A program made the translations under genes and the position numbers. DNA of 64,000 nt from Candidatus Multivoradales bacterium (GTDB lineage: Bacteria > Acidobacteriota > Thermoanaerobaculia > Multivoradales > Multivoraceae): NCBI GenBank assembly GCA_965223325.1, contig CBDCWI010000002.1:4320001-4384000 (forward strand), read 5' to 3'. The notes beneath the pieces were generated by a model. That model had not been told where the DNA came from and did not search any database. It saw only the letters and a program-made list of their open reading frames with translations. This document shows positions 33,504 to 50,845 of the stretch, in pieces (the stretch's first letter is position 1; every line of letters starts with the position of its first letter).

Positions 33504-33598
33504 GAGTTCTCCTCCGGAGCAATGGATGGCTCCGTGGTCGATGGGCCGCGGCAGCGGCCTCCCTCGACACGATGAATCAATGGGACGTCGACCCATTG

Positions 33599-33739
33599 TA
33601 CGACCCATCCGCCCTGTGGCTAGCCCGGTGTTGAGTTCCATCGTGGTCAGGAATCCGCGGCGCGCGCCAAGCGAGCGAAGGTCGACGCCATTTCGTCAAC
33701 GCGACGTGGTTGGCAAGGGGCCGCGCTGCGGGACGCTTG
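33599..33739 (+). repeat. Diverged member of the 284-bp repeat family (5' exon of intron copy 1; continues about 35650-35686)
   Basis: Same ordered motifs as the array unit: TAyGACC...GTCA, GAATCCG..GGCGCGCGCCmAGCGA, CCGCGCTnCGGnnCGCTTG|CGCCG, GGrGyCGTGGTAACG. Confidence 0.55.
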
Positions 33740-35649
33740 GATACGCCGGGATAAACCGGCATGGAGAAAGGAATGAGAGAGTCCCACCCTCGAAGGGGTA
33801 GCGACCCAGAGGGTCCCCGAGTCATGCGCCGGCTCCCGCGAGGGTGCGGTGAAGCGTTGACAGGGGCACACACAGGCCGGGTATTGAGCCGCGAAATAAG
33901 AATTTGGGAGTGCCGACGCTGTCAAGCGAAGCGGAAGGCGAGACTCCGTAGCGCGCTATCGCGAGCTCTGCGGCGACTCCCCGCGGTCGTAGACCCTGTG
34001 CATGTGTGGAATCTCCATGCGCGAGAACCGGGAGATCCGCGATCTGGCCAGTTGGGTATCTGGTCCGCATCGGGAAGGCTAGAGGCCGTAAGCCGATGAC
34101 GCACGGATGGCGGAAGTCAGACAGGCCCGTAGTACCTGCGAAGTCGTCGAACAACGGTGGGAGACCAGCGGCGGAGGCGGTGGAGGGAAGGGGCCTGGCC
34201 AAGGGGAACACGGGCAAGCAAAACGCACCCCGGACACAGAGCCGGATGGAGAGTGCGAGCAATGCGCTGGGCCGTGTACGAGAAGCCGCCCGCAGGGGCA
34301 AGGAAGTGAAGTTCACAGCGCTTCTTCACCACATCACGGTCGAGCGACTCCGGAGCGCATTTGACGTGTTGCACCGAGACGCAGCGGCAGGAGTGGACGG
34401 AGTGTCATGGAGCGAGTACGCAGAATCTTTGCTGAGCAATCTCGAGGACCTGCACTCTCGTGTCCACCGTGGGAGCTACCGGGCGAGTGCGACTCGTCGC
34501 GTCTACATCGAGAAATCGGATGGGCGGTTCCGACCGCTTGGCATCGCCACGTTGGAGGACAAGATCCTTCAGCGCGCCGTCGTCTCGGTGTTGGATGCGA
34601 TCTACGAGGAAGACTTTCTCGGGTACTCATACGGATTCAGGCGAGGCCGCAGCCAGCACGATGCTTTGGATGCGCTATTCGTTGGAATCACAAAGCGGAA
34701 GGTGAACTGGGTGCTCGACGCAGACATTCGTGGGTTCTTCGATGCCCTGGACCACGAGTGGCTGGTGAAGTTTCTCGAGCACCGTATCGGAGACCGTAGG
34801 ATCCTTCGCCTCATCCAGAAATGGCTGAGGTCCGGAGTGATGGAAGACGGTAAGTGGCACGCGAGCACGCGGGGGACTCCTCAGGGGGCGACGATTTCGC
34901 CTCTCCTCGGGAACGTGTACCTGCACTACGTGCTCGATCTCTGGGTCCAGCAGTGGAGGAAACGCAACGCGCTTGGGGACATGATCTTCGTGCGCTACGC
35001 GGATGACTTCATCGTTGGATTTGAGAGGCAGGAGGAGGCAGAACGATTCCTCGAGGAACTGAACCTGCGACTCCGTGACTTCTCGTTGGAGATCCAACCC
35101 GAGAAGACGCGCCTGCTGGAGTTTGGCCGCTTTGCGGCCTACAACCGACGCGCGCGAGGTCTCGGGCGGCCGGAGACCTTCGAGTTTCTAGGCTTTACGC
35201 ACTGCTGTGCGCAGTCTAGTCGAGGGAGGTTCTTGCTGAAGCGCATCACGAGCCGCCACCGAATCCGCAGGACACTGAAGGCTGTCGGTACGGCCCTTCT
35301 GGGACACCGACACTCGCCGCTACCAGAGCAAGGTCTCTGGCTGGGATCCGTGGTGCGAGGCTTCAATGCCTACTACGGCGTACCCGGCAACTCAGCGGCG
35401 TTGAACGCCTTTCGACAGGAGGTCATTCGGCACTGGATGCGCGCTCTGCGCCGACGCAGTGACAAAGACCGCACGTCCTGGAAACGGATGTGGGCCCTGG
35501 TGGCCCACTACCTACCCAAAGCCCGAGTCCAACATCCCTGGCCTGATGAGCGACTTGTCGTCAATACCTGAGGCAGGAGCCCAGTGCATTAGCAGTGCAC
35601 GCTGGGATCTGTGCGGGGGGCGCCGGGCAACCGGCGCTCCTACCGCGAT
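33740..35649 (+). mobile_element. Group II intron, copy 1 (IIB-like, resembles bacterial class E; 1,910 nt)
   Basis: RT ORF. Domain V GAGCCCAGTGCATTAGCAGTGCACGCTGGGATC (AGC triad); domain VI hairpin with A at -8; ends AT. EBS1 CAAGCG (33923-33928) is complementary to exon CGCTTG (33734-33739). Class assignment is from memory of family features. Confidence 0.95.
34096..35571 (+). CDS. ltrA: Group II intron reverse transcriptase/maturase (no HNH endonuclease domain)
   Basis: AAGVDG, RPLGI..EDKI.Q, SYGFR.GRS.HDA, DADIRGFFD, GTPQG, RYADD, TFEFLGF; ends HPWPDERL. Confidence 0.97.
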   Translation: MTHGWRKSDRPVVPAKSSNNGGRPAAEAVEGRGLAKGNTGKQNAPRTQSRMESASNALGRVREAARRGKEVKFTALLHHITVERLRSAFDVLHRDAAAGVDGVSWSEYAESLLSNLEDLHSRVHRGSYRASATRRVYIEKSDGRFRPLGIATLEDKILQRAVVSVLDAIYEEDFLGYSYGFRRGRSQHDALDALFVGITKRKVNWVLDADIRGFFDALDHEWLVKFLEHRIGDRRILRLIQKWLRSGVMEDGKWHASTRGTPQGATISPLLGNVYLHYVLDLWVQQWRKRNALGDMIFVRYADDFIVGFERQEEAERFLEELNLRLRDFSLEIQPEKTRLLEFGRFAAYNRRARGLGRPETFEFLGFTHCCAQSSRGRFLLKRITSRHRIRRTLKAVGTALLGHRHSPLPEQGLWLGSVVRGFNAYYGVPGNSAALNAFRQEVIRHWMRALRRRSDKDRTSWKRMWALVAHYLPKARVQHPWPDERLVVNT

Positions 35650-35777
35650 CGCCGCAAGAGTGATGAGTAGCGGAGCCGTGGTAACGCCTTTTCGAGGTCG
35701 AAGAAGCGGCAACTCCGGGCCGTCAACGAGTCACCGAAGAGGCCCTTCTGGCAGAGGCCGCAAAACCACGGCCCCCG

Positions 35778-36566
35778 CTACAAGAAGCCGAAGATCGCGA
35801 CGAAGTGGATCGCTGCGCCGACGAGGCCGAAGACGTGCCAGACCGTGTGGCCGTAGGGCAGGTTGTGCCATAGATAGAAGGCTCCGCCAAGGGTGTAGGC
35901 CAGGCCGCCGGCGAGGAACAGGGTCCAGGCCATTGGGGGCAGGGCAGCGGTAGCAGTGGGATACACCAGAAAGATGCTCCAACCCAGAGCGGCGTACGAA
36001 CCAACACACCAGCGCCGGTGCCAGACGCTGCTGCAGTGGTGTTTCCGGGTCACCAGCTTGAGGACGATCCCGGTGGCGGCGGCACTCCACACGGCACCCA
36101 ACAGGGGGACACCCACCGAGTGGTCGAGCCCGAGCAGGCAGAAGGGGGTGTAGGTACCGGCGATGAAGAGGTAGATCGCACAGTGATCGACGACCTGAAA
36201 AAGGGCACGGCGGGCCGGCTGAAGCTCGGCATGAAAGAGGGTCGAGGCAAGAAAGAGAAGAACCAGTGTGGCGCAATACAAAGCGCTGGCCGCAAAGGGA
36301 AGCAGAGACGTTTCGTAGGCGAGCCGAGTGAGCACCAGGCCCGAGGCGCCAGCGGCGGCGACCAGCCCGGCGGCATGGGTGACGATCTCAGCGAGGTCCT
36401 CGGTCGGTCGCCGGCGCGGGCGTGCGCTGGCCTTCTTCTTGGGGGCCTCCACCCTGATGGTTCGAGCGTCGACGGCGAGGCCTGTCTCGCTGGCCCGCCG
36501 GACTCTCTGACCGCCGAGCGTGGTGCGTGCGGGGATTGGTAGCAGGGTAACTTCGGTGGTGGACAT
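35778..36566 (-). CDS. Hemolysin III / PAQR family membrane protein
   Basis: STLFH, DHCAIYLFIAGTYTPF, GGLAYTLG, HTVWHVF. Confidence 0.93.
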   Translation of the reverse strand: MSTTEVTLLPIPARTTLGGQRVRRASETGLAVDARTIRVEAPKKKASARPRRRPTEDLAEIVTHAAGLVAAAGASGLVLTRLAYETSLLPFAASALYCATLVLLFLASTLFHAELQPARRALFQVVDHCAIYLFIAGTYTPFCLLGLDHSVGVPLLGAVWSAAATGIVLKLVTRKHHCSSVWHRRWCVGSYAALGWSIFLVYPTATAALPPMAWTLFLAGGLAYTLGGAFYLWHNLPYGHTVWHVFGLVGAAIHFVAIFGFL

Positions 36567-36634
36567 GGCTTATTGCAGGAGGAGACCGTCGAGATGGAGA
36601 GGTGGTTCAGGGCCAGGGCTGTGGACTGCCTCGC

Positions 36635-36862
36635 TCAGGCGACGTGGTGGCGGCGGAATTCGAGGTGCGACGAGGCTTCTGCGTACGTCGTCGAGGTCGC
36701 CGCTGCGCTCTTGGCCTGGCGCCGGGTCGAGAACTGGTCGAGTTCGACCGCCAGCAGAGAGAGGTCGTCGTCACTGAGTTGGTCGTCGAGCGCCGTCCAG
36801 CTCCAATCGTTTCGGTGAAGGAGGTCGTCTAGCCGGTCTGCGATGGCGGTGGTCGGTTTCAT
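36635..36862 (-). CDS. Small hypothetical protein
   Basis: 75-aa ORF with GGAG RBS upstream; no motif. Confidence 0.45.
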   Translation of the reverse strand: MKPTTAIADRLDDLLHRNDWSWTALDDQLSDDDLSLLAVELDQFSTRRQAKSAAATSTTYAEASSHLEFRRHHVA

Positions 36863-37068
36863 GATCGGTGGTCTCCGGTTGCTGCTCGATGGCTTCTGCC
36901 GCTGCTTCTTCGCTCAGGCCTCTGGTACTGCAGTGCGCGTGCCAGGGCTCGTTTCAGGGCGGTCGCCACCAGGAACAACCCAGTAAATACCCTCAGAGGG
37001 CTGTTTCAACGCGGCGCGTGGCATTCGCGGTGGTGACTTCGGTGGCAGCCAAGTGGGCACAAGTGGAA

Positions 37069-37095
37069 CTCTGGCTCCATTGGCTGGAGCCAGAG
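37069..37095. terminator. Perfect 11-bp hairpin, possible terminator
   Basis: CTCTGGCTCCA-ttggc-TGGAGCCAGAG about 30 nt downstream of the 37125..37694 gene. Confidence 0.5.
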
Positions 37096-37124
37096 CTCTC
37101 CTCCGTGACGTCGAGTGAAGGCTG

Positions 37125-37694
37125 CTAAGCGTTCTTCCGGTTGTTCCACCAGTTGAGGGCGCCGCGCGCCAGGGTTGCCCAGATACCGTTGCGCTGTTCC
37201 TGGACTTCACCGCCGCGCGACTCGCGGTAGCGGTCGATACCCCAGTCGACGACTCGGGTGAACCAGTTCTTCTTCTTGGTCGTACCGTCGGCTCCCGCCT
37301 CGGGCGCCAGCCCGCTGCGGTAACGGCGATAGCGGCTGACACCCCAGTCGGCGAGTTTGGCGAACCATCCACCCTTGGTGGCCGAGGTGGGTTCGCCCGT
37401 GCGGTAGGTCTTGAAGCGATCTACACCCCAGTCGACCAGGTTCTGCCACCAACGGTCCGGCTTGCCCTGGGAGCGCCGGTCTTCGCTGCGCTGCCACCAA
37501 TCGCCGAGCAAGCGGGTGAGCCAACCACCTTGCTGCTTGGGGCTTGCCTGCTGGGGCGCGGCTTGACTGTTGTAGGTGCGGGGGGTTTCGTTGCCATCGA
37601 CGGGGGCGCTTTGCGGGCGGGCCACCTGAACGTCGGCGGAGTACGTGCTCGCCACCTGGCGTGCGGTTGCGTTCTGAATTCCAGCTAGAGACAT
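37125..37694 (-). CDS. Orphan protein with Trp-rich amphipathic repeats
   Basis: RBS AAGGAGG before ATG 37694; repeats WWQNLVDWGVDRF, WFAKLADWGVSRY, WFTRVVDWGIDRY. Confidence 0.8.
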   Translation of the reverse strand: MSLAGIQNATARQVASTYSADVQVARPQSAPVDGNETPRTYNSQAAPQQASPKQQGGWLTRLLGDWWQRSEDRRSQGKPDRWWQNLVDWGVDRFKTYRTGEPTSATKGGWFAKLADWGVSRYRRYRSGLAPEAGADGTTKKKNWFTRVVDWGIDRYRESRGGEVQEQRNGIWATLARGALNWWNNRKNA

Positions 37695-37894
37695 CGGACA
37701 GGCCCTCCTTTTGAGGTCTTGATTCGTGTTCTGGGCCTCGGCCACCGGCGGTGGTCGCGGGTTCAGAGGGCTCTTCCGGAAGGCGCCGGCTTTGTTACCG
37801 GTCGGACCGGTCGAAACAGGGGTGTAACGAATCTGGCTCAGGTCGGAAGGGAAAGAGAGACGACAGATCGAACCCCTTTCACTGGAGTTTTCCC

Positions 37895-40321
37895 ATGACC
37901 GTTGCCTACAACCCCGTTCCTGGTGCCTCGCCGCCTTCGAACTACAAAGCGCCCTCACCGGGCGCCACACCACAACCCGCCAAAGCCCCCGGCGACAGCT
38001 ATGTCGGGGGCCCCGCCGGAGGGACGAGTGGTCACAGCCCGGGCCGACTGCACAAGATCAAGCGCTATCTCGAGCGCCTGTCCGCACAGGACCTCGAGCG
38101 TCTGGCGGCGAAGCAGTTCGCTCCCATCCAGGAACTCACCATCGGGCTGTCGGCTGCCGACCAGGCAACCGTACAGAACATGCTCGTTCAGAAGCTCGAG
38201 GCGGCCGGAGTTGCACTGCCAGGGGCCGGTGGTCCTGGCGGTGCGGAGGCGGATCAGGAGATCGCGCCCGGTGTGACGCTTGGCGAAATCGCTCCGCAGA
38301 CCGCCTGGGATGCCGTTCAGATTCGCCTGCCAAAAAGCCAGGACGAGATCAAAGCGATTCTGCGAGAGAACTGGGACCAGCGAGCAGAGACCGAAGGCGA
38401 CCAGATCCTGCCGGGTAAGCCGCCGGGTCAAGCCGTTATCGACTGGCACGAAGGCTCGGTCAACCACCTGATCAACTTCGGCATGGACGTTGGTGCGCTG
38501 CCGCACGAGATCAAACACGACGCCGCGGTCACCGCACGCAATCTCCTGGGCTACGCCCCAGGTGAGACGCCTGGCGGCGGGCCCAGGCCGCTCGCCGAAG
38601 AGGCCGTCTTCGGCGCCGTCTTGATGCGCATTCCCGAGGAGCGCGTCAACCCATACCAGCTCAAGTCGGCGCTCAAGTTCGTTGCCAAGGCCAAAGACGG
38701 CGCCGAACAGGCGCGCCGCCTGACCCAGACCATCGAGGGAATGCAGGTGCTCGACAAGGCCGGCTCGCCGCCGGTCACCGACACGATGCTCGAGCAGTGG
38801 CTGTACCAGAAGCACGACGTGCCGTTCGTGGCGATGCGCATGAGCCCGCAGGAGCTGCGCGAGAAGCACGACGAGATTGCCTTTATCCAGTCGGCGCCCG
38901 GGCACCACGAGGTCGGGCTGTCCAAGCACCGCACCTTCAAGATCGATAACGACGAACAGGGCAACACGACCCACGTCGAGGTCCACAAGAAGAGCGGCTG
39001 GTCGCGCTTCAAGGAGAAGTCGATCAAGTGGGCCGGCATTGCGTTCACCATCATGAGCTTCATTCCGCCGGTTGCCTGGATCGGCATGATCGGCAACGCC
39101 GCCATTTCGCTCTACCAGGGCTACAAGAACAAGGACTGGGTGGGTGGCATCGTTGGTGCCGCGGCGTCTTTCGCTGGTGCCGGTGCCGCCGGAGTGGCGG
39201 GCGCCGCGACCAAGGCTGCCCAGACCATGGCGACGGTTGGCAAGTACGCCGCCGTGGCTGGCGGCTTGATGGACGCCTATGCGGCCAAGAAGCGCGGCGA
39301 CTCGGCGGGTTTCTGGGGTGGCGTGGCTGGCTCAGTAGCGACCGCCTTCGGTGGCAAGCTCAACCGCGTCGGCGAGAAGGCGACCACGATGAGCCAGAAG
39401 ATCGGCGACTGGGCGGCGCGCGCTGCTGCTGCGGCCGACGGCTACAAGGCGGCCAAGAACGGTGACTACCTGGGCGCGGCAAGCGTTGGCTTGCGGATCG
39501 CCGCGTCGCTCGACGCTACTGGTGAGAAGGTCGATGCCAAGCTCCTGAAGACCGCCGATGGGTTCGACAGGTACCTCAACCCGGCTCTTGCGGCGGCTCG
39601 CAACGAGGACTACTTCGGAGCGGCATCCGGGATCGCCGGCTTCTTGAGTTCCTATGGTGGCAAGAACCAGAAGGCGTGGGAGAACACCGCCATCGCCCTT
39701 CAGGCCCTGGGCTATTCAAAGGAGGCGATCGAACACAAGCAGTGGGGTGCTGCTGCTGCCGGCATCGCCGGGGCTGCCGCGCGCTGGCGCGAGACCTACG
39801 AGAACCGGCGTGATGCCAAAGCCGGCGAGACCGGCGTATCGACCCCCGATGCCGCTGACACCGATTCCGAAACCCGAAAGAAGATGGAGGTCTCGGACCT
39901 GCTCGACCACCTCTCGAAGGGCCTCAACTACCTCGACAGCGGCTACCAGCTACTCAAGGAGCATCGCTACAAGGAAGGTGCAGCAAGCCTGCGTGGTGCC
40001 TCGGCCGACTATCTCGCGGGCAACAGCATCGGCCGCAGCGTCGAGCGCCAGGCCCAGATCGTCGACCAGATCGTCTCGGTGGCCGAACGCCTCGAGGCCG
40101 GTGACTATGAGCGTGGCGGCGTTGAGCTCAACTACCTGGCGACGATGCTCACCGGTGCCGGTCTCGACGACCTCAAGGCCGAGCTCGAAGGCGCGGCACG
40201 TTACTTCGTCGAAGTCGGTCGCGCGGGTCAGGAGCCCTCGGCCGAGGCCGAACAGCGTTTGAGCATGGCCCTCGAGGCGATGTTCAAGGCGTGGGCTCCC
40301 GAGGTGCAGCAGGCAGCCTGA
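37895..40321 (+). CDS. Large orphan protein with hydrophobic/glycine-zipper region (effector/pore-former-like)
   Basis: RBS GGAG, ATG 37895; Pro/Ser-rich N-terminus, no Sec signal, central hydrophobic hairpin, repeated D(Y/W).G(A/G)...G units. Confidence 0.8.
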   Translation: MTVAYNPVPGASPPSNYKAPSPGATPQPAKAPGDSYVGGPAGGTSGHSPGRLHKIKRYLERLSAQDLERLAAKQFAPIQELTIGLSAADQATVQNMLVQKLEAAGVALPGAGGPGGAEADQEIAPGVTLGEIAPQTAWDAVQIRLPKSQDEIKAILRENWDQRAETEGDQILPGKPPGQAVIDWHEGSVNHLINFGMDVGALPHEIKHDAAVTARNLLGYAPGETPGGGPRPLAEEAVFGAVLMRIPEERVNPYQLKSALKFVAKAKDGAEQARRLTQTIEGMQVLDKAGSPPVTDTMLEQWLYQKHDVPFVAMRMSPQELREKHDEIAFIQSAPGHHEVGLSKHRTFKIDNDEQGNTTHVEVHKKSGWSRFKEKSIKWAGIAFTIMSFIPPVAWIGMIGNAAISLYQGYKNKDWVGGIVGAAASFAGAGAAGVAGAATKAAQTMATVGKYAAVAGGLMDAYAAKKRGDSAGFWGGVAGSVATAFGGKLNRVGEKATTMSQKIGDWAARAAAAADGYKAAKNGDYLGAASVGLRIAASLDATGEKVDAKLLKTADGFDRYLNPALAAARNEDYFGAASGIAGFLSSYGGKNQKAWENTAIALQALGYSKEAIEHKQWGAAAAGIAGAAARWRETYENRRDAKAGETGVSTPDAADTDSETRKKMEVSDLLDHLSKGLNYLDSGYQLLKEHRYKEGAASLRGASADYLAGNSIGRSVERQAQIVDQIVSVAERLEAGDYERGGVELNYLATMLTGAGLDDLKAELEGAARYFVEVGRAGQEPSAEAEQRLSMALEAMFKAWAPEVQQAA

Positions 40322-40349
40322 GTCGAACCGCGGAGCGAGAACTCCTGGT

Positions 40350-41465
40350 TCAAGGCGCCAGTTGACGCGTCGCCGCCGCGCGGCGGCGCGCGGCCAGGGT
40401 CGACGCAGGCTCGATAGCCAGGGCACGGTCGGCGGCCGCGAGCGCCTTCTCCGGCTCGCCCAGGGCGAGAAGAATGGAGGAGTAGGTGCAGTGCAGGCGG
40501 GCATCGCCTGCCTTGGCGCGCAGGGCCGACTCGAGGACGGCAAGTGCTTCCCGGGGCCGGTCGAGCTCGCGCAGCGCGATGGCCATGGTGTTCTGTGCTC
40601 CGACGCTCAGCCTGCCGCCGTCACTGGTGCTCGAGCGGATTGCGAACAGAGCCTGCTCAGGGCGCCTTTTTCGCAAATGGTGGGCGGCTGCGATTTCCCA
40701 GGCGTTCGCGAGCAGCGCATTCTCGCGTGTCGTTGGGGCGATCGACTCCGCATAGCGATCGTTGTAGAACTGGATGTAGTGCGCCAGAGGTTTCCATTGA
40801 GACGAGGAAGCGCCGGCTTCGAAGACCCACGGCTTGCGGTTTCGATCGTAGACCAGAAGGGCCAGGTGGTCCGAAGTGCTGAGCGCCCCGAGCTGTCGGG
40901 AGAGACCGAGCCGAGGCCTGAGCCGATCGACCCGATCGAGGATCGCATCCAGGAGGACCACTCCGCTGTCGCAGTCGACCCAGAATGCTTCGCCGTGATG
41001 CGGCGCGCCGGGGTGCAGGCGTTGTTGGTCGAACCGCAGCGACAGAAGCGTGTTGTCGCCACCCTCGCGTTGCCACTGCACGCCGGCTAGTTGAAGGAGC
41101 TCGGCGGCCCGTTCGACGAGGGCGTCGGTCTTGCGGATCTGATCCGCTTCCCGTACCAGTCGGGCCGCCGTTTGATCGCGCAGGCGAAGCACTCGCCGTG
41201 CTCCGCGGGCGGCGCGCTCCTTGGTGGTGTTCGAATCGTAGGCAACCGTTTCCCGGTCGATCAGGAGCCGGGCCTCGAGACGTTTGCCATGTCGCGCCAG
41301 CTTGGCTGCGCGCTCGGCGAGCGCACCCTCTTCAAAGGCAGCTGAGCCCGCGACTGCTCGCGCCTCGGATGCCAAGAGAGCAGCGGCGGCCAGGACCGAG
41401 GCCAGCAGGGTGGAGCGCGCACTCCATCCCGAAGAGCAAACCGTTCGTACCTGCTTGGGGACCAT
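40350..41465 (-). CDS. Exported transglutaminase-like (Cys/His) domain + TPR protein
   Basis: Signal-like N-terminus, DCDS...DHLALLV...FEA motif, C-terminal TPRs. Start uncertain. Confidence 0.6.
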   Translation of the reverse strand: MVPKQVRTVCSSGWSARSTLLASVLAAAALLASEARAVAGSAAFEEGALAERAAKLARHGKRLEARLLIDRETVAYDSNTTKERAARGARRVLRLRDQTAARLVREADQIRKTDALVERAAELLQLAGVQWQREGGDNTLLSLRFDQQRLHPGAPHHGEAFWVDCDSGVVLLDAILDRVDRLRPRLGLSRQLGALSTSDHLALLVYDRNRKPWVFEAGASSSQWKPLAHYIQFYNDRYAESIAPTTRENALLANAWEIAAAHHLRKRRPEQALFAIRSSTSDGGRLSVGAQNTMAIALRELDRPREALAVLESALRAKAGDARLHCTYSSILLALGEPEKALAAADRALAIEPASTLAARRRAAATRQLAP

Positions 41466-41537
41466 TGATCCCCAAAATAGCACCGACTACGACTCGTCCC
41501 TCGCGATTCGTCCCAAGGCAGAGTTGGCGAGGTTGCT

Positions 41538-44501
41538 CTAGTGCCGCTCGAGCAACAGGTTGGTCACCCGTCCTGCATCCAAACGAAGTCTGCCGGGCAA
41601 AGCCTCTCCGCCTGGATTGCGCAGGGCGAGGAAACCATCAGTCCAAAGCGGCCCCTCTTCGTCATCGGCAGACGACCATCGCAGCTTCGTCTCGAGCCCC
41701 GGCGGCACCGAGATCGCCAACAGACCGTTCTCGAACGAGATCTCTTAGGTTACGTCGAGCTCCGCGCTGTACCAGCGGCCGACGTAGGGCCGCGCGTCAG
41801 CGGCAGCGGCTGGTGGCGGGATCTCGGTGCTGTCTTGCCCGATCGAGAGCAGTTCCGGTTCGCGAGCGGTCTGCGCCTTCTCGGGTTCCATCCTCGCCCC
41901 GAGCAAGACCTCCGCGGTCCGTTGGGCAAGGCGTGTGGACCAAGCGTCAGCACGGTTGCACAGTACGACGGTGGCGAGGTTCTCGCTCGGCCAGGTGGTC
42001 ATATTCGCGCGGTAGCCGACGAAGGCGCCGCCGTGCCCGAGCGTCTCCAGCCCTCGATGTTCGCCGTACGTGATGCCGAAGGCGTAGGGGTGGAGTTCCG
42101 GTTCTCCGTTGTCGCTTCCTTTCGAGTCGCCTCCGCGCAGCGGCTGGCGCGTTCGGATGAGATCGTGGAAAGGAGCGCCGAGCACCCGCGGCTCGAGCAG
42201 CTCCCGGGCCCACCGCGACATGTCCTCGACGTTCGAGAAGACGCCGCCGTCCCCGACCATGTCGAGGGTCGTCATCGACTGCCGCCAGTGCTGGCCTGGA
42301 CTCTCGGCGTAGCCGTTGGCCCGATGGGCGACGACGTGCGCGTGGTCGTCGTGAAAATGGGTGTCGGACATGCCGAGAGGTTCGAAGATCAGCTCGTCGG
42401 CAACTGCGCGAAGCGACCGGCCGGTGACCCGTTGGACGATCTGCGACATCAGGAAGTAGCCGCTGTTGCTATAGAGAAACTCGGCACCGGGCTCGAAGTT
42501 CAGCTCTTGTTGGCGCTCAATCATCGCCGAAGCTTCAGCGTCGGTGTAGAAGTCATCGCCTCGCTTGCCGGCCAGGAACATGAGCGTCAGGTAGTCCCGA
42601 ACGCCGCTTGTATGGTGGATGAGTTGGCGCGTGGTGACTTCGTTTCCCCATTCGGGAAGGTTTGCCAGGTAGCTCTTGATCGGCACATCGATATCGAGAG
42701 CGCCGCGCAGGTGAAGAAGCGCAACGGTGGCGGCAGTGAACTGCTTCGAGACCGAGCCGATACGAAAAACCGTCTTTGAGTCGATCGCGGTTCGGGCTTC
42801 GAGGTTGGCCATACCGTAGCCACGCGAGAACTCGAGCCGCCCGTCTCTCACGACGCCGAGAGCGCAACCCGGTGCGTGGGTTCCTCCCATTCCGTGGTCA
42901 GAGAAGACATCGTCAAGGGCGGTGATCACCTGCGGGTCATGCGGGTCCCTTACGCCGGCTCGACGAAGGGCACGCCCGGGTCGTTCGCCGGTCGCGCGGC
43001 CGCGATCCCAGACCGTCCGCCCGTTGACCCACACTCGCACGATGCCCAGGGAGGTCTTGGAGGGTTCCTCGAAGGTTGCCCGGTCGCGGACCGTCTCGGC
43101 GTCGAAGAGCACCAGGTCGGCTGGTCCTCCGACCCGGATGACACCGCGCAGCAACTGACCATCTTTGCCGGTCAGGCCGACGTTCCTGGCGGCCAACGCC
43201 GAAGTCTTGTGGCTCGCCTCGGCCAGGGTCACTGCCCCCGCCTCGCGCACGATCATGGCGAAGAAGCGCGGGAAAGACCCCGCGCCCCGCGGGTGGCGAT
43301 CGGCGAGGGCACCGTCGCTCGAGACGTTGGTGTACTTCCAGGTGTAGAGCTCTTCGATGTCTTGTTGTGACATCGAACGCGCGATGATCGACTCGCCAGA
43401 GGCACCGGTCTTCTGCCGCCATTCTGCGGCTTCGGCGAGCAGGTCGAGATAGAGGTCGACCGGGTCGACCTTGCGTGCACGGGCGATCTCGTCGAGGGTG
43501 CGACCGACGAGCTCAGGCTGGGGGGCCCAGCGCGACAGACGAAAGCCATCTGGCGGCGCGAGCTCGCGGAGGGCGAAGGCGGCCGTCTCCCGGTTGTCGA
43601 AGTCACGCTCGGGGAAGAGCACCGTCATCGTCGACTGCCACGCGTCGTAGGGGTAGACGTCTGCCGAGACTTCGATCCCCTCGTCACGCGCTGCCTGCAG
43701 GCGAGCGATCACCTCGTTGGCACGCCCGTGCAGGCTCTTCATGGCGAGTTTGAGGTGCGACGCCTGGACTGGGATCTCGGCCCGCCGTCCAATCTCGATC
43801 AGCTCGTCGAGGGCCTCCAGCACTTGGCGGTCTTCAGAGCGCATGTGTGAGACGTAGCGCCCGTCATGGCGTGCAACGGCCTTGGCCAACGCGACCACCT
43901 CGTCGGTCGTGGAGTAGATCCCCGGGTCGTACTCGAGCCCGCTCGACAGGCCGAGGGCGCCGTCGCGCATCGCTTGTTCGACAAGTCCGACCATGCGTTC
44001 GACCTCGTCTTCGGTGGCGGCGCGCTCGAAGTCGTCGCGCATGACGGCGGCCCGAATCGTTCCGTGGCCTACGAACGTAGCCACGTTGACTGCCGCGGGC
44101 TGCCTATCGAGGCCGCGCAGGAAGCGGCCGACTGGAAGCGATGAACCACCGTCCTGGCCAACGACGATGGTCGTGATGCCCTGACTGATCGCTGCTTCGG
44201 CGAGCGGCTCGTCGAAAAGGCCGATGTCGTGGTGGCTGTGAGTATCGACGAAGCCCGGCATCAGAACCAGGCCCGCGGCCTCGATGACGCGGTCGGTGCT
44301 CTGCGTCATCGCTTCGGCCTCGCGGCCCAGCGCGGCCACCGCATCGCCTTCGATGCGGACCGTCAGAACGCGACCATCGGCACCACTGCCGTCGAAGACG
44401 GTGGCACCTTGGATCACGGTTGCCGGGCGGCTCTGTGCGGCGACCGCCGCAGTAGTCAGAAGAAGCGCGCCGAGCGCACCGAGGGCGCTGCTAGGACGCA
44501 C
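41538..44501 (-). pseudogene. D-aminoacylase-like amidohydrolase fused to beta-lactamase-like serine hydrolase, with in-frame TAA at 41745-41747
   Basis: PGFVDTHSH, HMRSE, HPRGAG; SVSK, YSN, HGG. The frame continues 68 codons past the TAA to TAG at 41538. The truncated product may still be active. Confidence 0.75.
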
Positions 44502-46137
44502 CGCGACGGACGGCGAAGGCGCGGTCGATGGCGTTCATGTGCTCGATGCGCAGGTTGCTGCCAGCCTGGATGGTTTCACCGAGCTCCATGTAGGCCTCAC
44601 TCTCGGGTGTGAAGGCCGGCCACTCCGGGAAACCATCGCCGTTCGGGTTGCCCGTCCTGGCGAAGCGCACCCAGAGATCGGCGATGGTCTCGGAGAACTC
44701 CTCGTCGGCCTCGGTCGGTTCGGCGCCGAAGAGCGTCAGGTCGCCAAAGACATAGCCGAGCTCGCCAGCATGAAAGGCGCCGAGGTCGGTGTCACCCGGG
44801 ACCGGCGGGCTCCAGGTGAAGTAGTACAAGTAGGCCGGGCTGCTGGCATTTGCCATGCCGCGTGCCCAGGCGCGCTGCGGATAGGCGAACAGTACGTCAC
44901 TGAAGAGATCGATCCAGGCGCGGCGCGCCTCATCGTCGCCCACCGGGTAGAGCACCTTCGCCTCGTCTCCGAGTTCAGGAAGGGTCATTGCCAGGTAGCG
45001 CTCGAAGCCGACGTTGCCGGCGCCGAGAGCGGTGGCGAGGTAAGGCAACAGGGTCGACCCCTCATCGGCGTTGGAGCCGGTCATGACTGGAACGTCACTC
45101 TGGTCTCCGGCGGCGAAGATCTCGGCGACTTCCCTGGGGATCGCATGGCCGTCGACGATGGCCAGTCCTTCGTAGGCGGCGAACGGCTGAAACGCCTCGA
45201 GCACCCTGGCGGGATCCTGGGCGCGCAGCGCGGCGAGCGATGCCTCCGCTTCACCATCGTCGGCGGCTGGCAGGAGCGCCTTTGTAAACTCCTCGCCTCG
45301 CGCCTCGGCCGAGGGAGTCCAGCTGGTTGCCTCGGTACGGTGAACCATGGGTTGGAACGAGCCACCGCTTTGTCCGATGGCGCGATGGAACATCCCCTTG
45401 GCAAGCGGCGAGGCCTGCACCAGCGAAACGCTGAGTGCACCAGCAGACTCTCCGAAGATGGTGATGTTGTCCGGGTCTCCGCCGAAGGCCGAAATGTTGT
45501 TGCGCGTCCACTCGAGTGCCTTGATCTGGTCGAGAATGCCCTGGTTGCCGGAGGTGCCGTGCGGGCTTTCGGCCGACAGTTCGGGGTGCGCCAGGAAGCC
45601 GAAGGCACCGAGGCGGTAGTTGATCGTCACCAGCACGACGCCCTTCTTGGTGAGCAGGTCGCCTCGATAGTCGCCGCCGCTACCCGCCGTCAGACCGCCG
45701 CCGTGAATCCAGAACATCACCGGCAGGCGGTCGTCTTGCGAGGTGGCGCGCGACCAGACGTTGAGCGTCAAGCAGTCTTCTGAGACCGCGCTGTACGACT
45801 GGTTGTAGAAGCCGCCGTCAGGGCCCGCCAGCTGCTGACACGCAGCGCCGACCTCGGTGGCACTGCGCGTACCCTCCCAGGCGACGACTGGTTGCGGTTC
45901 GCGCCAGCGGAGCGCGCCGACCGGGGGGGCTGCATAGGGAATACCGAACCAGACGGGTGTTCCGTCGGCACTCGTCGTACCAACGATGGCGCCGCCGGTT
46001 ACCGCGATTTCAGCAGTGATACCAGTCGCCGTCTGGTCAGCACCGGTCTCGTTCATGTCGCAAGCCGCGAGGGTAGAGATCAAGAGCAGAAGCAAAGTGG
46101 GAAGAGCAACGTTCCTGAAAAGGGTGAACAACGCCAT
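44491..46137 (-). CDS. Type B carboxylesterase lipoprotein
   Basis: Lipobox LAAC, GIPYAAPPVG.LRW, SEDCLTLNVW, HGGG, FGESAG, FHAGEL. Confidence 0.95.
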   Translation of the reverse strand: MALFTLFRNVALPTLLLLLISTLAACDMNETGADQTATGITAEIAVTGGAIVGTTSADGTPVWFGIPYAAPPVGALRWREPQPVVAWEGTRSATEVGAACQQLAGPDGGFYNQSYSAVSEDCLTLNVWSRATSQDDRLPVMFWIHGGGLTAGSGGDYRGDLLTKKGVVLVTINYRLGAFGFLAHPELSAESPHGTSGNQGILDQIKALEWTRNNISAFGGDPDNITIFGESAGALSVSLVQASPLAKGMFHRAIGQSGGSFQPMVHRTEATSWTPSAEARGEEFTKALLPAADDGEAEASLAALRAQDPARVLEAFQPFAAYEGLAIVDGHAIPREVAEIFAAGDQSDVPVMTGSNADEGSTLLPYLATALGAGNVGFERYLAMTLPELGDEAKVLYPVGDDEARRAWIDLFSDVLFAYPQRAWARGMANASSPAYLYYFTWSPPVPGDTDLGAFHAGELGYVFGDLTLFGAEPTEADEEFSETIADLWVRFARTGNPNGDGFPEWPAFTPESEAYMELGETIQAGSNLRIEHMNAIDRAFAVRRGAS

Positions 46138-46315
46138 GGGTTGGCCTCCTTGGCACCGCTGGGCGATCGCCTCAGGACCAGAGAGCGCAAAGACTCACGG
46201 TCCGCCGCAGCGGCTCAGGTTGTTTCAAAAAGGGGGGGACGGGCGGAATCTTATCGGAGGTCCCGCCGGGCCCCAGCCGCAACTCTTGAGGTTCAAGGCC
46301 CGTAGAAGGTCTTCA

Positions 46316-46984
46316 ATGCGAGGAATCGAGCAGATCCCATGGTGCTACGACACTTTGATGGGAATCTCCGAGCGCACCGGTCTCGGACGTTGGCGCCGCT
46401 GGCTCACCTCCGGCAGCCAGGGACAAGTCCTCGAAGTCGGCAGCGGCACCGGCCGCAACCTGCCGCTCTACCCCGGCGACGCCAAAGTCATCGGCCTCGA
46501 GCCCGCCTTCGCATCACTCCTCGCAGCCCGCAAGAAGTCCCCCGATACCCGCCTCGTCCTCGGCAGCGCCGAAGACCTGCCCTTCAGACCGAACAGCTTC
46601 GACACCGTCGTCTCCGGCCTGGTCTTCTGCAGCGTCCCCGACCCCATGCGCGGCCTCTCCGAAGTCGCCCGAGTCCTCCGCCCAAGCGGCACCCTGCGCA
46701 TGTTGGAGCACGTCCGCGCCAAGAGCCACTGGGGAGGAAGATTCCAGGACCTCATTCTGCCCCCCTGGAAATTCGTCACCGGCGGCTGTCACCTCAACCG
46801 TGACACCGAAGCCAACGTAAGAAACGCCGGCTTCCAGATCCAGCCCGACCGGAAAGAAGACGGCTCCCTACGCTGCTTCAGCGCAGTTCCGCCGCGCGAG
46901 GTGAGTCGCGATCGAGTCCAAGCCGAGGGCCGTATGACCCCGTTGACGCCGCCTCGGGGCAACGGCCTGCAGCTCGGGTTGTAG
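46316..46984 (+). CDS. Class I SAM-dependent methyltransferase (METTL7-like); last ~20 aa read from repeat unit 1
   Basis: VLEVGSGTG, FDTVV..LVFCSVPDP, RVLRPSG..LEHV, GGCHLNRDT; TAG lies inside the repeat. Confidence 0.92.
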   Translation: MRGIEQIPWCYDTLMGISERTGLGRWRRWLTSGSQGQVLEVGSGTGRNLPLYPGDAKVIGLEPAFASLLAARKKSPDTRLVLGSAEDLPFRPNSFDTVVSGLVFCSVPDPMRGLSEVARVLRPSGTLRMLEHVRAKSHWGGRFQDLILPPWKFVTGGCHLNRDTEANVRNAGFQIQPDRKEDGSLRCFSAVPPREVSRDRVQAEGRMTPLTPPRGNGLQLGL

Positions 46985-47652
46985 CCGTAGAATCCGAGTA
47001 GGCGCGCGCCCAGCGACTCGCAGTCGTTCGCCGCGTGTACAGGGCGGCCTCCCGGCGCCGTCGGCCCGCGCTTCGGACCGCTTGCGCCGTCCCCCTTGAG
47101 GGGGTACCAGGGGGTGAGGTGACATTGATTGGGGTCGTGGTAACGACGGATCGCGCTCGCGAGATCGCCTCTCTCTACCAACAGCCTCACCCAAGCCGAG
47201 CGCGATACGAGGGCCGTATGACCCCGTTGACGCCGCCTCGGGGCAACGGCCTGCAGCTCGGGTTGTAGCCGTAGAATCCGAGTAGGCGCGCGCCCAGCGA
47301 CTCGCAGTCGTTCGCCGCGTGTACAGGGCGGCCTCCCGGCGCCGTCGGCCCGCGCTTCGGACCGCTTGCGCCGTCCCCCTTGAGGGGGTACCAGGGGGTG
47401 AGGTGACATTGATTGGGGTCGTGGTAACGACGGATCGCGCTCGCGAGATCGCCTCTCTCTACCAACAGCCTCACCCAAGCCGAGCGCGATACGAGGGCCG
47501 TATGACCACGTTGACGTCGCGTTTCGGGAACTGTGAACCCATCAAGTCATAGCCGTAGAATCCGAGTAGGCGCGCGCCCAGCGACTCGCAGTCGTTCGCC
47601 GCGTGTACAGGGCGGCCTCCCGGCGCCGTCGGCCCGCGCTTCGGACCGCTTG

Positions 47653-49562
47653 GATACGCCGGGATAAACCGGCATGGAGAAAGGAATGAGAGAGTCCCAC
47701 CCTCGAAGGGGTAGCGACCCAGAGGGTCCCCGAGTCATGCGCCGGCTCCCGCGAGGGTGCGGTGAAGCGTTGACAGGGGCACACACAGGCCGGGTATTGA
47801 GCCGCGAAATAAGAATTTGGGAGTGCCGACGCTGTCAAGCGAAGCGGAAGGCGAGACTCCGTAGCGCGCTATCGCGAGCTCTGCGGCGACTCCCCGCGGT
47901 CGTAGACCCTGTGCATGTGTGGAATCTCCATGCGCGAGAACCGGGAGATCCGCGATCTGGCCAGTTGGGTATCTGGTCCGCATCGGGAAGGCTAGAGGCC
48001 GTAAGCCGATGACGCACGGATGGCGGAAGTCAGACAGGCCCGTAGTACCTGCGAAGTCGTCGAACAACGGTGGGAGACCAGCGGCGGAGGCGGTGGAGGG
48101 AAGGGGCCTGGCCAAGGGGAACACGGGCAAGCAAAACGCACCCCGGACACAGAGCCGGATGGAGAGTGCGAGCAATGCGCTGGGCCGTGTACGAGAAGCC
48201 GCCCGCAGGGGCAAGGAAGTGAAGTTCACAGCGCTTCTTCACCACATCACGGTCGAGCGACTCCGGAGCGCATTTGACGTGTTGCACCGAGACGCAGCGG
48301 CAGGAGTGGACGGAGTGTCATGGAGCGAGTACGCAGAATCTTTGCTGAGCAATCTCGAGGACCTGCACTCTCGTGTCCACCGTGGGAGCTACCGGGCGAG
48401 TGCGACTCGTCGCGTCTACATCGAGAAATCGGATGGGCGGTTCCGACCGCTTGGCATCGCCACGTTGGAGGACAAGATCCTTCAGCGCGCCGTCGTCTCG
48501 GTGTTGGATGCGATCTACGAGGAAGACTTTCTCGGGTACTCATACGGATTCAGGCGAGGCCGCAGCCAGCACGATGCTTTGGATGCGCTATTCGTTGGAA
48601 TCACAAAGCGGAAGGTGAACTGGGTGCTCGACGCAGACATTCGTGGGTTCTTCGATGCCCTGGACCACGAGTGGCTGGTGAAGTTTCTCGAGCACCGTAT
48701 CGGAGACCGTAGGATCCTTCGCCTCATCCAGAAATGGCTGAGGTCCGGAGTGATGGAAGACGGTAAGTGGCACGCGAGCACGCGGGGGACTCCTCAGGGG
48801 GCGACGATTTCGCCTCTCCTCGGGAACGTGTACCTGCACTACGTGCTCGATCTCTGGGTCCAGCAGTGGAGGAAACGCAACGCGCTTGGGGACATGATCT
48901 TCGTGCGCTACGCGGATGACTTCATCGTTGGATTTGAGAGGCAGGAGGAGGCAGAACGATTCCTCGAGGAACTGAACCTGCGACTCCGTGACTTCTCGTT
49001 GGAGATCCAACCCGAGAAGACGCGCCTGCTGGAGTTTGGCCGCTTTGCGGCCTACAACCGACGCGCGCGAGGTCTCGGGCGGCCGGAGACCTTCGAGTTT
49101 CTAGGCTTTACGCACTGCTGTGCGCAGTCTAGTCGAGGGAGGTTCTTGCTGAAGCGCATCACGAGCCGCCACCGAATCCGCAGGACACTGAAGGCTGTCG
49201 GTACGGCCCTTCTGGGACACCGACACTCGCCGCTACCAGAGCAAGGTCTCTGGCTGGGATCCGTGGTGCGAGGCTTCAATGCCTACTACGGCGTACCCGG
49301 CAACTCAGCGGCGTTGAACGCCTTTCGACAGGAGGTCATTCGGCACTGGATGCGCGCTCTGCGCCGACGCAGTGACAAAGACCGCACGTCCTGGAAACGG
49401 ATGTGGGCCCTGGTGGCCCACTACCTACCCAAAGCCCGAGTCCAACATCCCTGGCCTGATGAGCGACTTGTCGTCAATACCTGAGGCAGGAGCCCAGTGC
49501 ATTAGCAGTGCACGCTGGGATCTGTGCGGGGGGCGCCGGGCAACCGGCGCTCCTACCGCGAT
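47653..49562 (+). mobile_element. Group II intron, copy 2 (apparently identical to copy 1, offset 13,913 nt)
   Basis: All internal ORF translations match copy 1. Boundaries are fixed by comparison with intact repeat units (GACCGCTTG|CGCCGTCCCC). Confidence 0.96.
48009..49484 (+). CDS. ltrA: Group II intron reverse transcriptase/maturase
   Basis: Protein identical to 34096..35571; RYADD. Confidence 0.97.
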   Translation: MTHGWRKSDRPVVPAKSSNNGGRPAAEAVEGRGLAKGNTGKQNAPRTQSRMESASNALGRVREAARRGKEVKFTALLHHITVERLRSAFDVLHRDAAAGVDGVSWSEYAESLLSNLEDLHSRVHRGSYRASATRRVYIEKSDGRFRPLGIATLEDKILQRAVVSVLDAIYEEDFLGYSYGFRRGRSQHDALDALFVGITKRKVNWVLDADIRGFFDALDHEWLVKFLEHRIGDRRILRLIQKWLRSGVMEDGKWHASTRGTPQGATISPLLGNVYLHYVLDLWVQQWRKRNALGDMIFVRYADDFIVGFERQEEAERFLEELNLRLRDFSLEIQPEKTRLLEFGRFAAYNRRARGLGRPETFEFLGFTHCCAQSSRGRFLLKRITSRHRIRRTLKAVGTALLGHRHSPLPEQGLWLGSVVRGFNAYYGVPGNSAALNAFRQEVIRHWMRALRRRSDKDRTSWKRMWALVAHYLPKARVQHPWPDERLVVNT

Positions 49563-49801
49563 CGCCGTCCCCCTTGAGGGGGTACCAGGGGGTGAGGTGA
49601 CATTGATTGGGGTCGTGGTAACGACGGATCGCGCTCGCGAGATCGCCTCTCTCTACCAACAGCCTCACCTTGAGGGGGTACCAGGGGGTGAGGTGACATT
49701 GATTGGGGTCGTGGTAACGACGGATCGCGCTCGCGAGATCGCCTCTCTCTACCAACAGAGGGCCGAGTAGGCGCGCGCCCAGCGTATGACCACGACCCCA
49801 A

Positions 49802-50845
49802 TCAATACCTGAAAGGCCAAAGCCGAAAATAATCCTTCACATTCCGCCACAACTTCGCCAACCCCTCCGGCTCTAGAATCAAGAACAACACAATCACCAA
49901 CCCAAAGACTCCCTGCTGTACGAACGGCAACTTCGCAGCGAGAAGTGGCGCCGTGTCTTGCATCGCCCGGCCCATGGTCGAAATGAACGCCGGCAGAAGC
50001 ACAATCAGAGTGGCCCCGAAGAAGCTGCCGTTGATCGTGCCGAGGCCGCCGATGATGATCATCGCCAGGTAGAGAATGCTGGTCTCGATCGTGAACCGCT
50101 CCCAGGTGACGATCGTTCGGTAGTGCGCCAACATCGCACCCGCCAGCCCGACGACGAAACTCGAGGTCGCGAAGGCCAGGAGCTTGTAACCAAAGACGTT
50201 GACGCCGATGGCAGAGGCCGCGATGTCTTGATCGCGAATCGCAACGAACGCCCGGCCGACGCGCGACCGGAAGAGATTGGCAGTGGCCAAGGCGACCAGG
50301 CAAGCGACACCGACCGCGATCCAATAGAACTCGAAGTCACCGTTCACCCGCATGCCGGCCAGTTCTGGTGCCGGCACGACCAGCGCTTCGGTGCCGCCGG
50401 TAAGCGCTGTCCAGTGGGTGATCACCCACTCGACGATCTGTTGAGCGGCCAGGGTTGCGATGGCCAGGTAGAGGCCCTTCAGGCGCAGGCTCGGCAGGCC
50501 GAAGAAGAGCCCTATGAGAGCAGTCAGGAGGGCCGCTGCCGGAATGCTGAGGAAGAAGGGCCAGTCGAAGCGGGCGGTGAGGATTCCAGAACTGTAGGCA
50601 CCGATGGCGAGAAAGGCACCCTGCCCGAGGCTGATCTGACCGGTATAGCCAACCAGGATGTTGAGGCCCAGCGCACCGATGGTCGCTAGAGCGATCTGGT
50701 TGGCGAGGGTGAGCCAGTAGTTGCTGGCGACGAACGGAAAGGCAACCAGAAACACTCCGAACAGGGCCAGGCGCACCTTCTCGAGCGGCAAGCGGCGCAG
50801 CGACATGTCGCGGCGATAGGTTTCGAAGAACGTTCCAGATTGCAT
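49802..50845 (-). CDS. LIV-type ABC transporter permease (LivM-like)
   Basis: GLNILVGYTGQISLGQ, LRLKGLYLAIATLA, GRAFVAIRD, IIGGLG. Confidence 0.95.
   Translation of the reverse strand: MQSGTFFETYRRDMSLRRLPLEKVRLALFGVFLVAFPFVASNYWLTLANQIALATIGALGLNILVGYTGQISLGQGAFLAIGAYSSGILTARFDWPFFLSIPAAALLTALIGLFFGLPSLRLKGLYLAIATLAAQQIVEWVITHWTALTGGTEALVVPAPELAGMRVNGDFEFYWIAVGVACLVALATANLFRSRVGRAFVAIRDQDIAASAIGVNVFGYKLLAFATSSFVVGLAGAMLAHYRTIVTWERFTIETSILYLAMIIIGGLGTINGSFFGATLIVLLPAFISTMGRAMQDTAPLLAAKLPFVQQGVFGLVIVLFLILEPEGLAKLWRNVKDYFRLWPFRY

Follow-up and report, generated by a model that had tools for sequence, protein, structure and literature searches.

The described systems closest to the one considered here are RmInt1 and RmInt2 of Sinorhizobium meliloti, class D group II introns which encode a reverse transcriptase (RT)/maturase without an endonuclease, reach many near-identical copies per genome and use a homing site that is itself multi-copy and dispensable, with occasional ectopic insertions (PMC5894124, PMC4615759, PMC4075523). 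RmInt1 homes into the insertion sequence (IS) ISRm2011-2 and RmInt2 into the inverted repeats of ISRm17, which are non-coding (PMC5894124, PMC4615759); for RmInt1 a strong lagging-strand preference is reported (PMC4075523). For class C introns the targets are terminators and attC sites; introns of the IIB type are seen in integron contexts (PMC7923331). Dispersed palindromic repeats can also receive mobile DNA: repetitive extragenic palindromic (REP) sequences are targets of ISPpu9, ISPpu10, ISPa11 and IS1397, and two of nine copies of a group II intron of Pseudomonas putida KT2440 lie at REPs (PMC1525189). The subject of this report is a 1910-nt group II intron found twice in a stretch of 64,000 nt (the window) from Candidatus Multivoradales bacterium, which corresponds to positions 4,320,001 to 4,384,000 of contig CBDCWI010000002.1 (C2) in a 6.69-Mb assembly of two contigs (C1 and C2; GCA_965223325.1).

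The intron shares with RmInt1 and RmInt2 an endonuclease-less RT/maturase, numerous near-identical copies, a multi-copy and dispensable homing site and the occasional use of ectopic sites. It departs from both in its target, which is no IS but a structured repeat of ~240 nt in which no coding capacity was found, in the absence of the class D C-terminal motif, and in that no pairing of an exon-binding site 2 (EBS2) was found; unlike RmInt1, it shows no lagging-strand bias (8 copies vs 6). We consider it probable, at roughly 85%, that an endonuclease-less group II intron has recently invaded this genome and multiplied by site-specific retrohoming into the conserved block of a species-restricted repeat.

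A blastn comparison with the whole genome retrieved 14 full-length copies, 12 of them at 100% and two at 99.95% identity with a single mismatch, and the RT frame is intact in every one. The two copies in the window are identical over all 1910 nt, as a sequence-only reading of the window had already noted. Thirteen copies occupy the same nucleotide (CGCTTG^C, the caret marking the insertion point) of one repeat family, each in a different array. The fourteenth, ectopic copy (C2:2349730-2351639, minus strand) lies in unrelated surroundings with only GCGCTTG^C in common; it points the same way as a reading frame for a GNAT acetyltransferase and sits at the 5′ edge of this frame, which it may interrupt or merely precede. 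When the flanks of all copies are compared genome-wide, the repeat is thus shared by 13, and the situation in which nothing beyond CGCTTG is common to the sites applies to one, at C2:2351639. Besides the full-length copies there is a 36-nt match and a 239-nt 3′ fragment of 97% identity at C2:4242250-4242488, in the usual position of a repeat unit and with unrelated, AT-richer sequence on its 5′ side, which looks like the trace of an older insertion.

The preference for the repeat is strong. On the repeat's own strand it contains 130 CGCTTGC sites, 13 filled and 117 empty (~10% filled), whereas among the 1681 CGCTTGC sites elsewhere in the genome a single one is filled and 1680 are empty, bringing the unfilled heptamers to 1797 (odds ratio 187, Fisher p 1e-14). 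Homing into a dispersed intergenic repeat family had been proposed from two sites, whose upstream flanks match at 18 of 23 positions; it holds well beyond these two, for a repeat that lies mostly between genes. Since in-repeat sites are preferred over other CGCTTGC sites, site choice must need more than the six-nucleotide intron-binding site 1 (IBS1) plus position +1. The flanks of the 13 in-repeat copies give the consensus ..CATCGAAGCCACGAATCCGCGGCGCGCG..CAGGGCG..ACGGACCGCTTG^CGCCGCAAGAGTGAC.CTAGCG..CGTGGTAAC.., the ectopic copy having been omitted from both this alignment and the profile hidden Markov model built from it. At the insertion point lies a conserved block of ~20 nt, ACGGACCGCTTG^CGCCGCAA, in which +1 is always C; the 13-mer GGACCGCTTGCGC is nearly private to the repeat (71 of its 72 occurrences).

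The filled-unit flanks also bear on how the intron spread. They are 61% identical upstream of -12 and 58% downstream of +8, vs 89% in the -12..+8 core, and with the intron itself at 99.95-100% identity the repeat family must be much older than the spread of the intron. In principle it could have been multiplied by unequal crossing-over, by conversion from unit to unit or by duplication of those units that bear an intron, the units being homologous and often tandem and hence substrates for recombination, and in arrays with at least three usable sites the intron indeed sits in an end unit in 6/6 cases (the 5′-most unit in 5/6), a borderline result with a chance expectation of ~0.05. Spread at the DNA level is nevertheless very improbable, because duplication or conversion would bring the flanks along: these diverge up to ~12 nt upstream and 8 nt downstream of an identical intron, the filled units lie in 13 different arrays, and one copy has only IBS1 in common with the others. 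There is no evidence that an intron excludes a second one from the same array (P = 0.21 under random placement). That the flanks instead belong to a larger composite mobile unit, so that the apparent target would be part of the element, is barely credible. Such a unit would fit the conserved stretches that border almost all copies, ~100 nt long upstream and ~130 nt downstream, but it is already contradicted: 117 units carry the same site without an intron, the flanks are ~60% identical vs 100% for the intron, none of 78 loci with related introns has the repeat beside it, apart from one chance-level match (E 0.28), and the empty site is precise. Site-specific retrohoming would account for the identical intron in divergent flanks.

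Four public runs containing the stretch (X1, X3, X5 and X6) were compared as assembled contigs over 33300-36000. In X3, from a different sample of the same organism and study, a 20,210-nt contig joins 33739 to 35650, skipping exactly 1910 nt with ends GA..AT and leaving 30 nt on the far side, and the intron contig of this run bears the 5′ flank of other copies, not that of the 33739/35650 locus. In X1 a contig that covers the 5′ flank continues for 24 nt of the intron, and a second contig spans the 3′ junction. Runs X5 and X6, from other studies, contain the intron at at least 99% identity with loose ends that are the flanks of this genome's other copies; neither covers the unique flanks of the window locus. 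The organism seems to be present at low depth in both. The X3 contig and the empty neighbouring units in the window together make a precise presence/absence comparison. Recent activity, which the sequence-only reading had proposed, is supported by these comparisons: near-identical copies lie in flanks of ~60% identity, the 33739 site that it had singled out for a check of occupancy exists in an empty form in a second sample, and ~117 sites are still unoccupied. Occupancy thus appears to differ between two samples, which would make this a natural system caught early in an invasion. Empty orthologous repeat sites, which would inform on ends and target duplication, were also sought in five relatives; these have diverged too far, their genes being 66-77% identical and no longer syntenic.

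The intron starts with GATACG and ends with CCGCGAT, its limits being fixed unambiguously by comparison of the filled 47652/47653 site with two empty neighbouring units of 284 nt; the empty targets had been correctly placed at 47084 and 47368. The only Rfam family found in the window, RF02005 (group-II-D1D4-6), matches domain I in both copies over the full model length (180.6 bits each vs a gathering score of 49). Its alignment puts the sequence CAAGCG (33923-33928), as predicted for exon-binding site 1 (EBS1), in a hairpin loop, from which it is complementary to IBS1 CGCTTG. This pairing defines the 5′ junction, CGCTTG^GATACGCC, in 14/14 copies. The intron open reading frame (ORF) encodes 441 residues with YADD at residue 251; it scores 342.9 bits with TIGR04416, a model of group II RT/maturases (cut-off 300), and has RVT_1 as its only Pfam match; no nuclease family was matched in the Pfam and TIGR04416 scans, in agreement with the absence of an endonuclease domain noted earlier. 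The last 78 nt are predicted to form two hairpins, the second with a bulged UA 8 nt from the end (fold z-score -3.9).

Relatives of the RT, 49-67% identical, occur in many phyla; 95 stretches encode one, and the set used here comprises 78 loci, in which alignment of domain I starts near intron position 3. Across relatives from other phyla, changes in the EBS1 loop are matched by changes in the six bases that end the 5′ exon (UAAGCG/CGCTTA, UAACCG/CGGTTA, UAUCCG/CGGATA, and further CACCGC/GCGGTG and UGUAGG/CCTACA), which validates the EBS1 assignment. A gammaproteobacterial relative uses nearly the same site (..GGACGCTTA^), and its identical copies vary at -7..-13, so that EBS2-type pairing is not evident in this lineage either. 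The flanks of other relatives appear on reading to lie in transposase reading frames or in short tandem repeats. A 61%-identical relative (loci L024-L028, L053 and L098, from Syntrophobacteraceae metagenome-assembled genomes) sits in runs of GGTGAAG-type tandem repeats, and at two Syntrophobacteraceae loci the introns form a head-to-tail pair in which the 3′ end is followed directly by the GUGCG of the next. The relative on pSymA of S. meliloti (protein 51% identical), which matches both RF02005 and RF00029, adjoins the end of a Mutator-family transposase gene.

The intron, which the sequence-only reading had called non-IIC, is likely to be so. Solved structures do not discriminate the class of the ORF, and no mapping of RF02005 to a class was found in the literature examined. 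The absence of D and endonuclease domains from the RT is a class D trait too; a regular-expression search for the class D C-terminal motif LX3AX3PXLF[V/A]HW, as given in PMC4615759, gave no match in the intron RT. Outside the ORF the RNA measures 584 nt. The predicted domain V begins with GAGC, vs the CGC found at this position in IIC introns. The quoted range of 450-700 nt for the small IIB-like lineages E and F spans this RNA size, and the ~412 nt quoted for a IIC intron is below it (PMC3753933). RNA size, a 6-nt IBS1 and the position of the hairpin described below together make class C unlikely. The intron does resemble class C and IIC-attC introns in having no evident EBS2, in its endonuclease-less RT and in its apparent use of widespread structured non-coding DNA at gene ends as a harmless landing site (PMC7306698, PMC7923331). 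It differs from class C in that the covarying hairpin is found downstream of the insertion point, with no more than the remote 5′ strand of another helix on the upstream side, and in that the intron is antisense to the gene preceding the hairpin.

The repeat was defined with an nhmmer profile of the 13 filled-site flanks, which gave 180 matches (E at most 0.01) in 58 loci. It is mostly intergenic and occurs mostly as tandem arrays, in which 2-8 units share one orientation and the period is mainly 200-310 nt; a unit measures ~240 nt. No Rfam family matched at E at most 1 in the repeat of 20 arrays (24.2 kb). A coding function was rejected on reading the alignments by eye, with no formal test, as they contain single-base indels and show no three-base periodicity. 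The repeat was likewise rejected as an attC site, the consensus boxes of which (RYYYAAC/GTTRRRY) were not present on reading. Its distribution is narrow: none of 40 relatives has it by BLAST, covariance model R1 matched one of 56 other family genomes, and that weakly (31 bits, E 6e-4), and the one further genome from this genus yielded neither the intron nor the repeat.

The insertion site lies in a conserved 5′ module of ~125 nt that travels with a hairpin. Covariation was analysed in an alignment (A1) with one unit per array, which holds 39 of 42 references, three insert variants (L106, L120 and L123) being left out. It reveals a long-range helix, P1, in which GCGGCGCGCG, ~80-90 nt upstream, forms 10 pairs with CGC-UU-GCGCCG..C. 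In all, 98.7% of cells are paired and 4/10 pairs have compensatory double changes (GC/CG 27:11 and CG/GC/UA 35:3:1, and two single switches to UA or AU); none of 500 shuffles matches this signal, which is gone when the partners are slid by 1-3 columns. Within the 3′ strand of P1 the insertion point falls between G and C, adjoining the UU bulge, and IBS1 and positions +1..+6 are placed by covariation inside the helix and not in its loop, so that in the folded state IBS1 would be mostly paired. The description of the repeat as prone to be single-stranded is not supported by this arrangement, and nothing in the data points to single-stranded DNA as the target. In one subfamily of units, ~27-35 additional nucleotides rich in G and C (..CCCCTTGAGGGGG.. 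or a similar sequence) follow immediately 3′ of the insertion site, at window positions 47085-47120, at C2:510634-513552 and at locus L155; the site of this subfamily is still used, copy 2 and C2:512892 being filled.

It is conceivable that the folded repeat itself guides targeting in the manner of the terminator or attC stem-loop for class C, P1 and/or the 17-bp hairpin being recognised in single-stranded or extruded DNA, which would explain both the preference for the repeat and the lack of strand bias. The location of the insertion point within a covarying helix and ~17-30 nt upstream of a strongly covarying hairpin agrees with this idea, as do the almost even orientation of the copies (8 co-oriented, 6 head-on), the failure to find an EBS2-IBS2 pairing here or in the gammaproteobacterial relative with its variable -7..-13, and the fact that class C introns read structure more than sequence (PMC7306698). 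We nonetheless think it unlikely. Pairing of IBS1 in P1 should hinder its pairing with EBS1, the ectopic copy has no surrounding repeat, and the hairpin lies 3′ of the site and not 5′ as in class C; moreover, no part of the repeat is more conserved in sequence than the -12..+8 block, so that sequence and structure are inseparable here.

The hairpin has the form (C/G)TAGCG-N6-CGTGGT, an A/C-rich spacer of ~78 nt, and ACCACG-N6-CGCTA(G/C), and it begins ~17-30 nt 3′ of the insertion site. In 24 distinct hairpins (alignment A2, which omits L013:+ as the reverse of L013:-) the stem comprises 17 pairs, 10 of them with double changes; the counts of G-T (7) and A-C (14) mismatches are not decisive for the functional strand. 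Complete hairpins occur mainly in the last unit of an array, internal units being shortened in the second arm, and 46 of 60 strand-separated arrays possess a terminal hairpin. In 41 of these 46 arrays its foot contains the stop codon of a convergent ORF (35 TAG, 4 TGA, 2 TAA; ORFs of at least 60 codons with a G+C content at third positions, GC3, of at least 0.7). In one case compared with orthologues, the gene ends with TGA in two related genera and here with the TAA of the element. Such an overlap with the stop codon of a neighbouring gene is also a feature of mycobacterial interspersed repetitive units (MIRUs). At both window loci the intron is outside reading frames and antisense to the gene abutting the hairpin. 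Three further arrays (C2:90913-91585, C2:1640908-1641438 and C2:952725-952819) contain the same type of hairpin (CTAG..GTGGT / ACCAC..CTAG) and were missed by the 5′-module profile, which indicates that the hairpin also accompanies other flanking modules.

The term REP-like, used in the sequence-only reading, is fair for this 3′ hairpin. REPINs are described as having conserved arms in inverted orientation around a spacer, frequent compensatory changes, and clusters in tandem that take in flanking sequence (PMC3116915), and like REPINs, bacterial interspersed mosaic elements (BIMEs) and MIRUs the hairpin is extragenic and clustered in tandem, with inverted arms, a ~78-nt spacer and compensatory changes. 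Unlike for REPINs, no repeat-flanked gene of a cognate REP-associated tyrosine transposase (RAYT) was found: the genome has 28 Y1_Tnp-like matches and just one lies within 3 kb of an array, and on this ground a REPtron reading of the repeat was rejected. The arms begin with CTAG or GTAG and are on reading not the self-complementary small palindromes of a REPIN. The conserved 125-nt 5′ module with its own long-range helix is a further difference, and it is this module that the intron uses, not the hairpin. Compared with the REP-targeting ISs and the KT2440 intron, the common point is the landing of a mobile element in a dispersed palindromic repeat; here, unlike there, 13/14 copies are at one exact nucleotide, and the element is a retroelement acting via RNA-DNA pairing.

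The relation of the intron to replication was assessed with replichores derived from the GC skew. The cumulative skew changes sign at ~3.507 Mb and 0.361 Mb of C2 and is negative throughout C1, which fits one chromosome split into two contigs. Repeat units are split almost evenly, 87 being co-oriented with replication and 93 head-on, and the corresponding counts of intron copies are 8 and 6 overall, or 7 and 6 for those in the repeat. The suggestion that insertion follows the skew signal therefore fails on a genome-wide scale, where no replication-strand bias of intron copies is seen. Of the 28 matches to PF01797 (Y1 transposase), which lie in open frames of ~170-410 aa, many are clustered at contig ends (C2:4455510-4486968 and C1:2126128-2143849, plus scattered sites), and together with the GC skew these clusters suggest that one chromosome was broken at a repeated gene cluster.

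In the mechanism that we propose, EBS1 (CAAGCG) would pair with IBS1 (CGCTTG) and place the insertion to the exact nucleotide in the conserved block, with the extra specificity beyond these 7 nt probably coming from further RNA or protein contacts with the block or from the structure of the repeat. The intron would land ~17-30 nt before the hairpin, antisense to the neighbouring gene and outside any frame; the repeat would thus serve as a harmless multi-copy landing pad, and retrohoming would not be tied to one replication strand. A more elaborate proposal is that the intron is specialised on a REPIN-like repeat in which the covarying helix spanning the site and the stop-supplying hairpin give an undescribed mode of targeting, folding of the repeat and not the replication fork exposing the site for strand-independent retrohoming, and the helix pairing the exons in the precursor RNA and so aiding splicing. 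We regard this as decidedly unlikely.

A number of observations weigh against retrohoming by an active intron into a structured repeat. RF00029 gave no match at E at most 1 in the domain V/VI region (35573-35612), so that the recent spread is the sole argument for ribozyme competence, and the 5′ end of the intron (33740-33745), GAUACG, has an extra A after G1 vs the GUGCG or GUACG of relatives. Duplex searches for EBS2-IBS2 produced just inconsistent GC-rich matches, GC-rich sequence yielding many spurious duplexes. Of the two whole units folded as DNA, neither has P1 in its minimum-energy structure, and no sigma-70-like promoter was found in repeat units. Finally, the empty form in X3 comes from one contig with 30 nt past the joint, and contigs of this kind establish that an empty form exists, not how frequent it is or whether it coexists with the filled form.

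Homing into repeats is a known survival strategy, and it is the type of shelter, a lineage-restricted structured non-coding repeat, that is new here; the repeat itself is undescribed. No description was found of a group II intron specialised at one exact nucleotide on a structured repeat other than an IS or attC, in a search that left most subscription journals outside. To the known shelters, which are ISs, terminators and attC sites, the present case adds a structured repeat with ~130 usable sites, ~10% of them filled, and shows how an element can multiply without breaking genes. The system allows tests of what an endonuclease-less intron needs beyond EBS1/IBS1 and of whether single-stranded DNA at the replication fork is truly required. 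The repeat is of interest in its own right, as a hairpin foot that provides stop codons (41/46) is combined with strong covariation within one genome, a hallmark of selection on the propagation or function of the element. The features of the window are given in Table 1.

Table 1. Coordinates of the intron copies, their target units and the adjoining genes (window numbering)
Feature	Position	Strand	Basis
Periplasmic binding protein gene (Peripla_BP_6)	32283..33641	-	ORF list; Pfam E 4e-57
ATG of the Peripla_BP_6 gene, in the conserved 5′ end (..TTCCATCG..) of the repeat unit	33639-33641	-	
5′ module of single repeat unit = 5′ exon of copy 1; IBS1 CGCTTG 33734-33739	33635..33739	+	nhmmer C2:4353635-4353739; flank alignment
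Group II intron copy 1, GAUACG...CGAU	33740..35649	+	blastn; X3 empty-site contig
Ribozyme domain I core	33778..33996	+	RF02005; EBS1-IBS1 covariation
RT/maturase	34246..35571	+	TIGR04416, RVT_1
Domains V and VI (predicted); domain VI with bulged UA, A 8 nt from 3′ end	35573..35649	+	fold z-score -3.9
3′ exon, rest of 5′ module (CGCCGCAAGAGTGATGA); +1..+6 = 3′ strand of P1	35650..35666	+	reading and covariation
Terminal hairpin, arms GTAGCGGAGCCGTGGT / ACCACGGCCCCCGCTAC	35667..35781	.	reading; family covariation
TAG stop of HlyIII-related gene in hairpin foot	35778-35780	-	stop-overlap statistics
HlyIII-related membrane protein gene, 3′ part, convergent	35778..36116	-	ORF list, Pfam
Methyltransferase gene, ends where the tandem array starts	45986..46984	+	ORF list, Pfam
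Tandem pair of 284-nt units at 98% identity, with empty sites that end at 47084 and 47368	46913..47480	+	reading; nhmmer
Extra insert (TCCCCCTTGAGGGGG...) after CGCCG in the 284-nt-unit subfamily	within 46913..47480	+	reading
5′ part of third unit = 5′ exon of copy 2	47481..47652	+	reading; nhmmer
Group II intron copy 2, identical to copy 1	47653..49562	+	blastn; RF02005 47691-47909
3′ exon: rest of unit 3, a further partial unit and terminal hairpin	49563..49805	+	reading
Terminal hairpin at copy 2, arms TTGATTGGGGTCGTGGT / ACCACGACCCCAATCAA	49699-49805	+	reading
TGA stop of permease gene in hairpin foot	49802-49804	-	reading
Branched-chain amino acid permease gene (BPD_transp_2), convergent on the array	49802..50845	-	ORF list, Pfam

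Two further repeats were noted. A separate family of 166 nt that resembles miniature inverted-repeat transposable elements is found at C2:64762-64927 and in at least 32 other places; it is bounded by CTAG, has constant terminal inverted repeats (CTAGTACCCCGTACCAT...ATGGTACGGGGTACTAG) and is unrelated to the intron target. Within the window, positions 13003-15627 contain nine copies of a 43-nt repeat inside a long coding region, with a motif of the ..DxDGDxDL.. type that we take to resemble FG-GAP/VCBS-type repeats.

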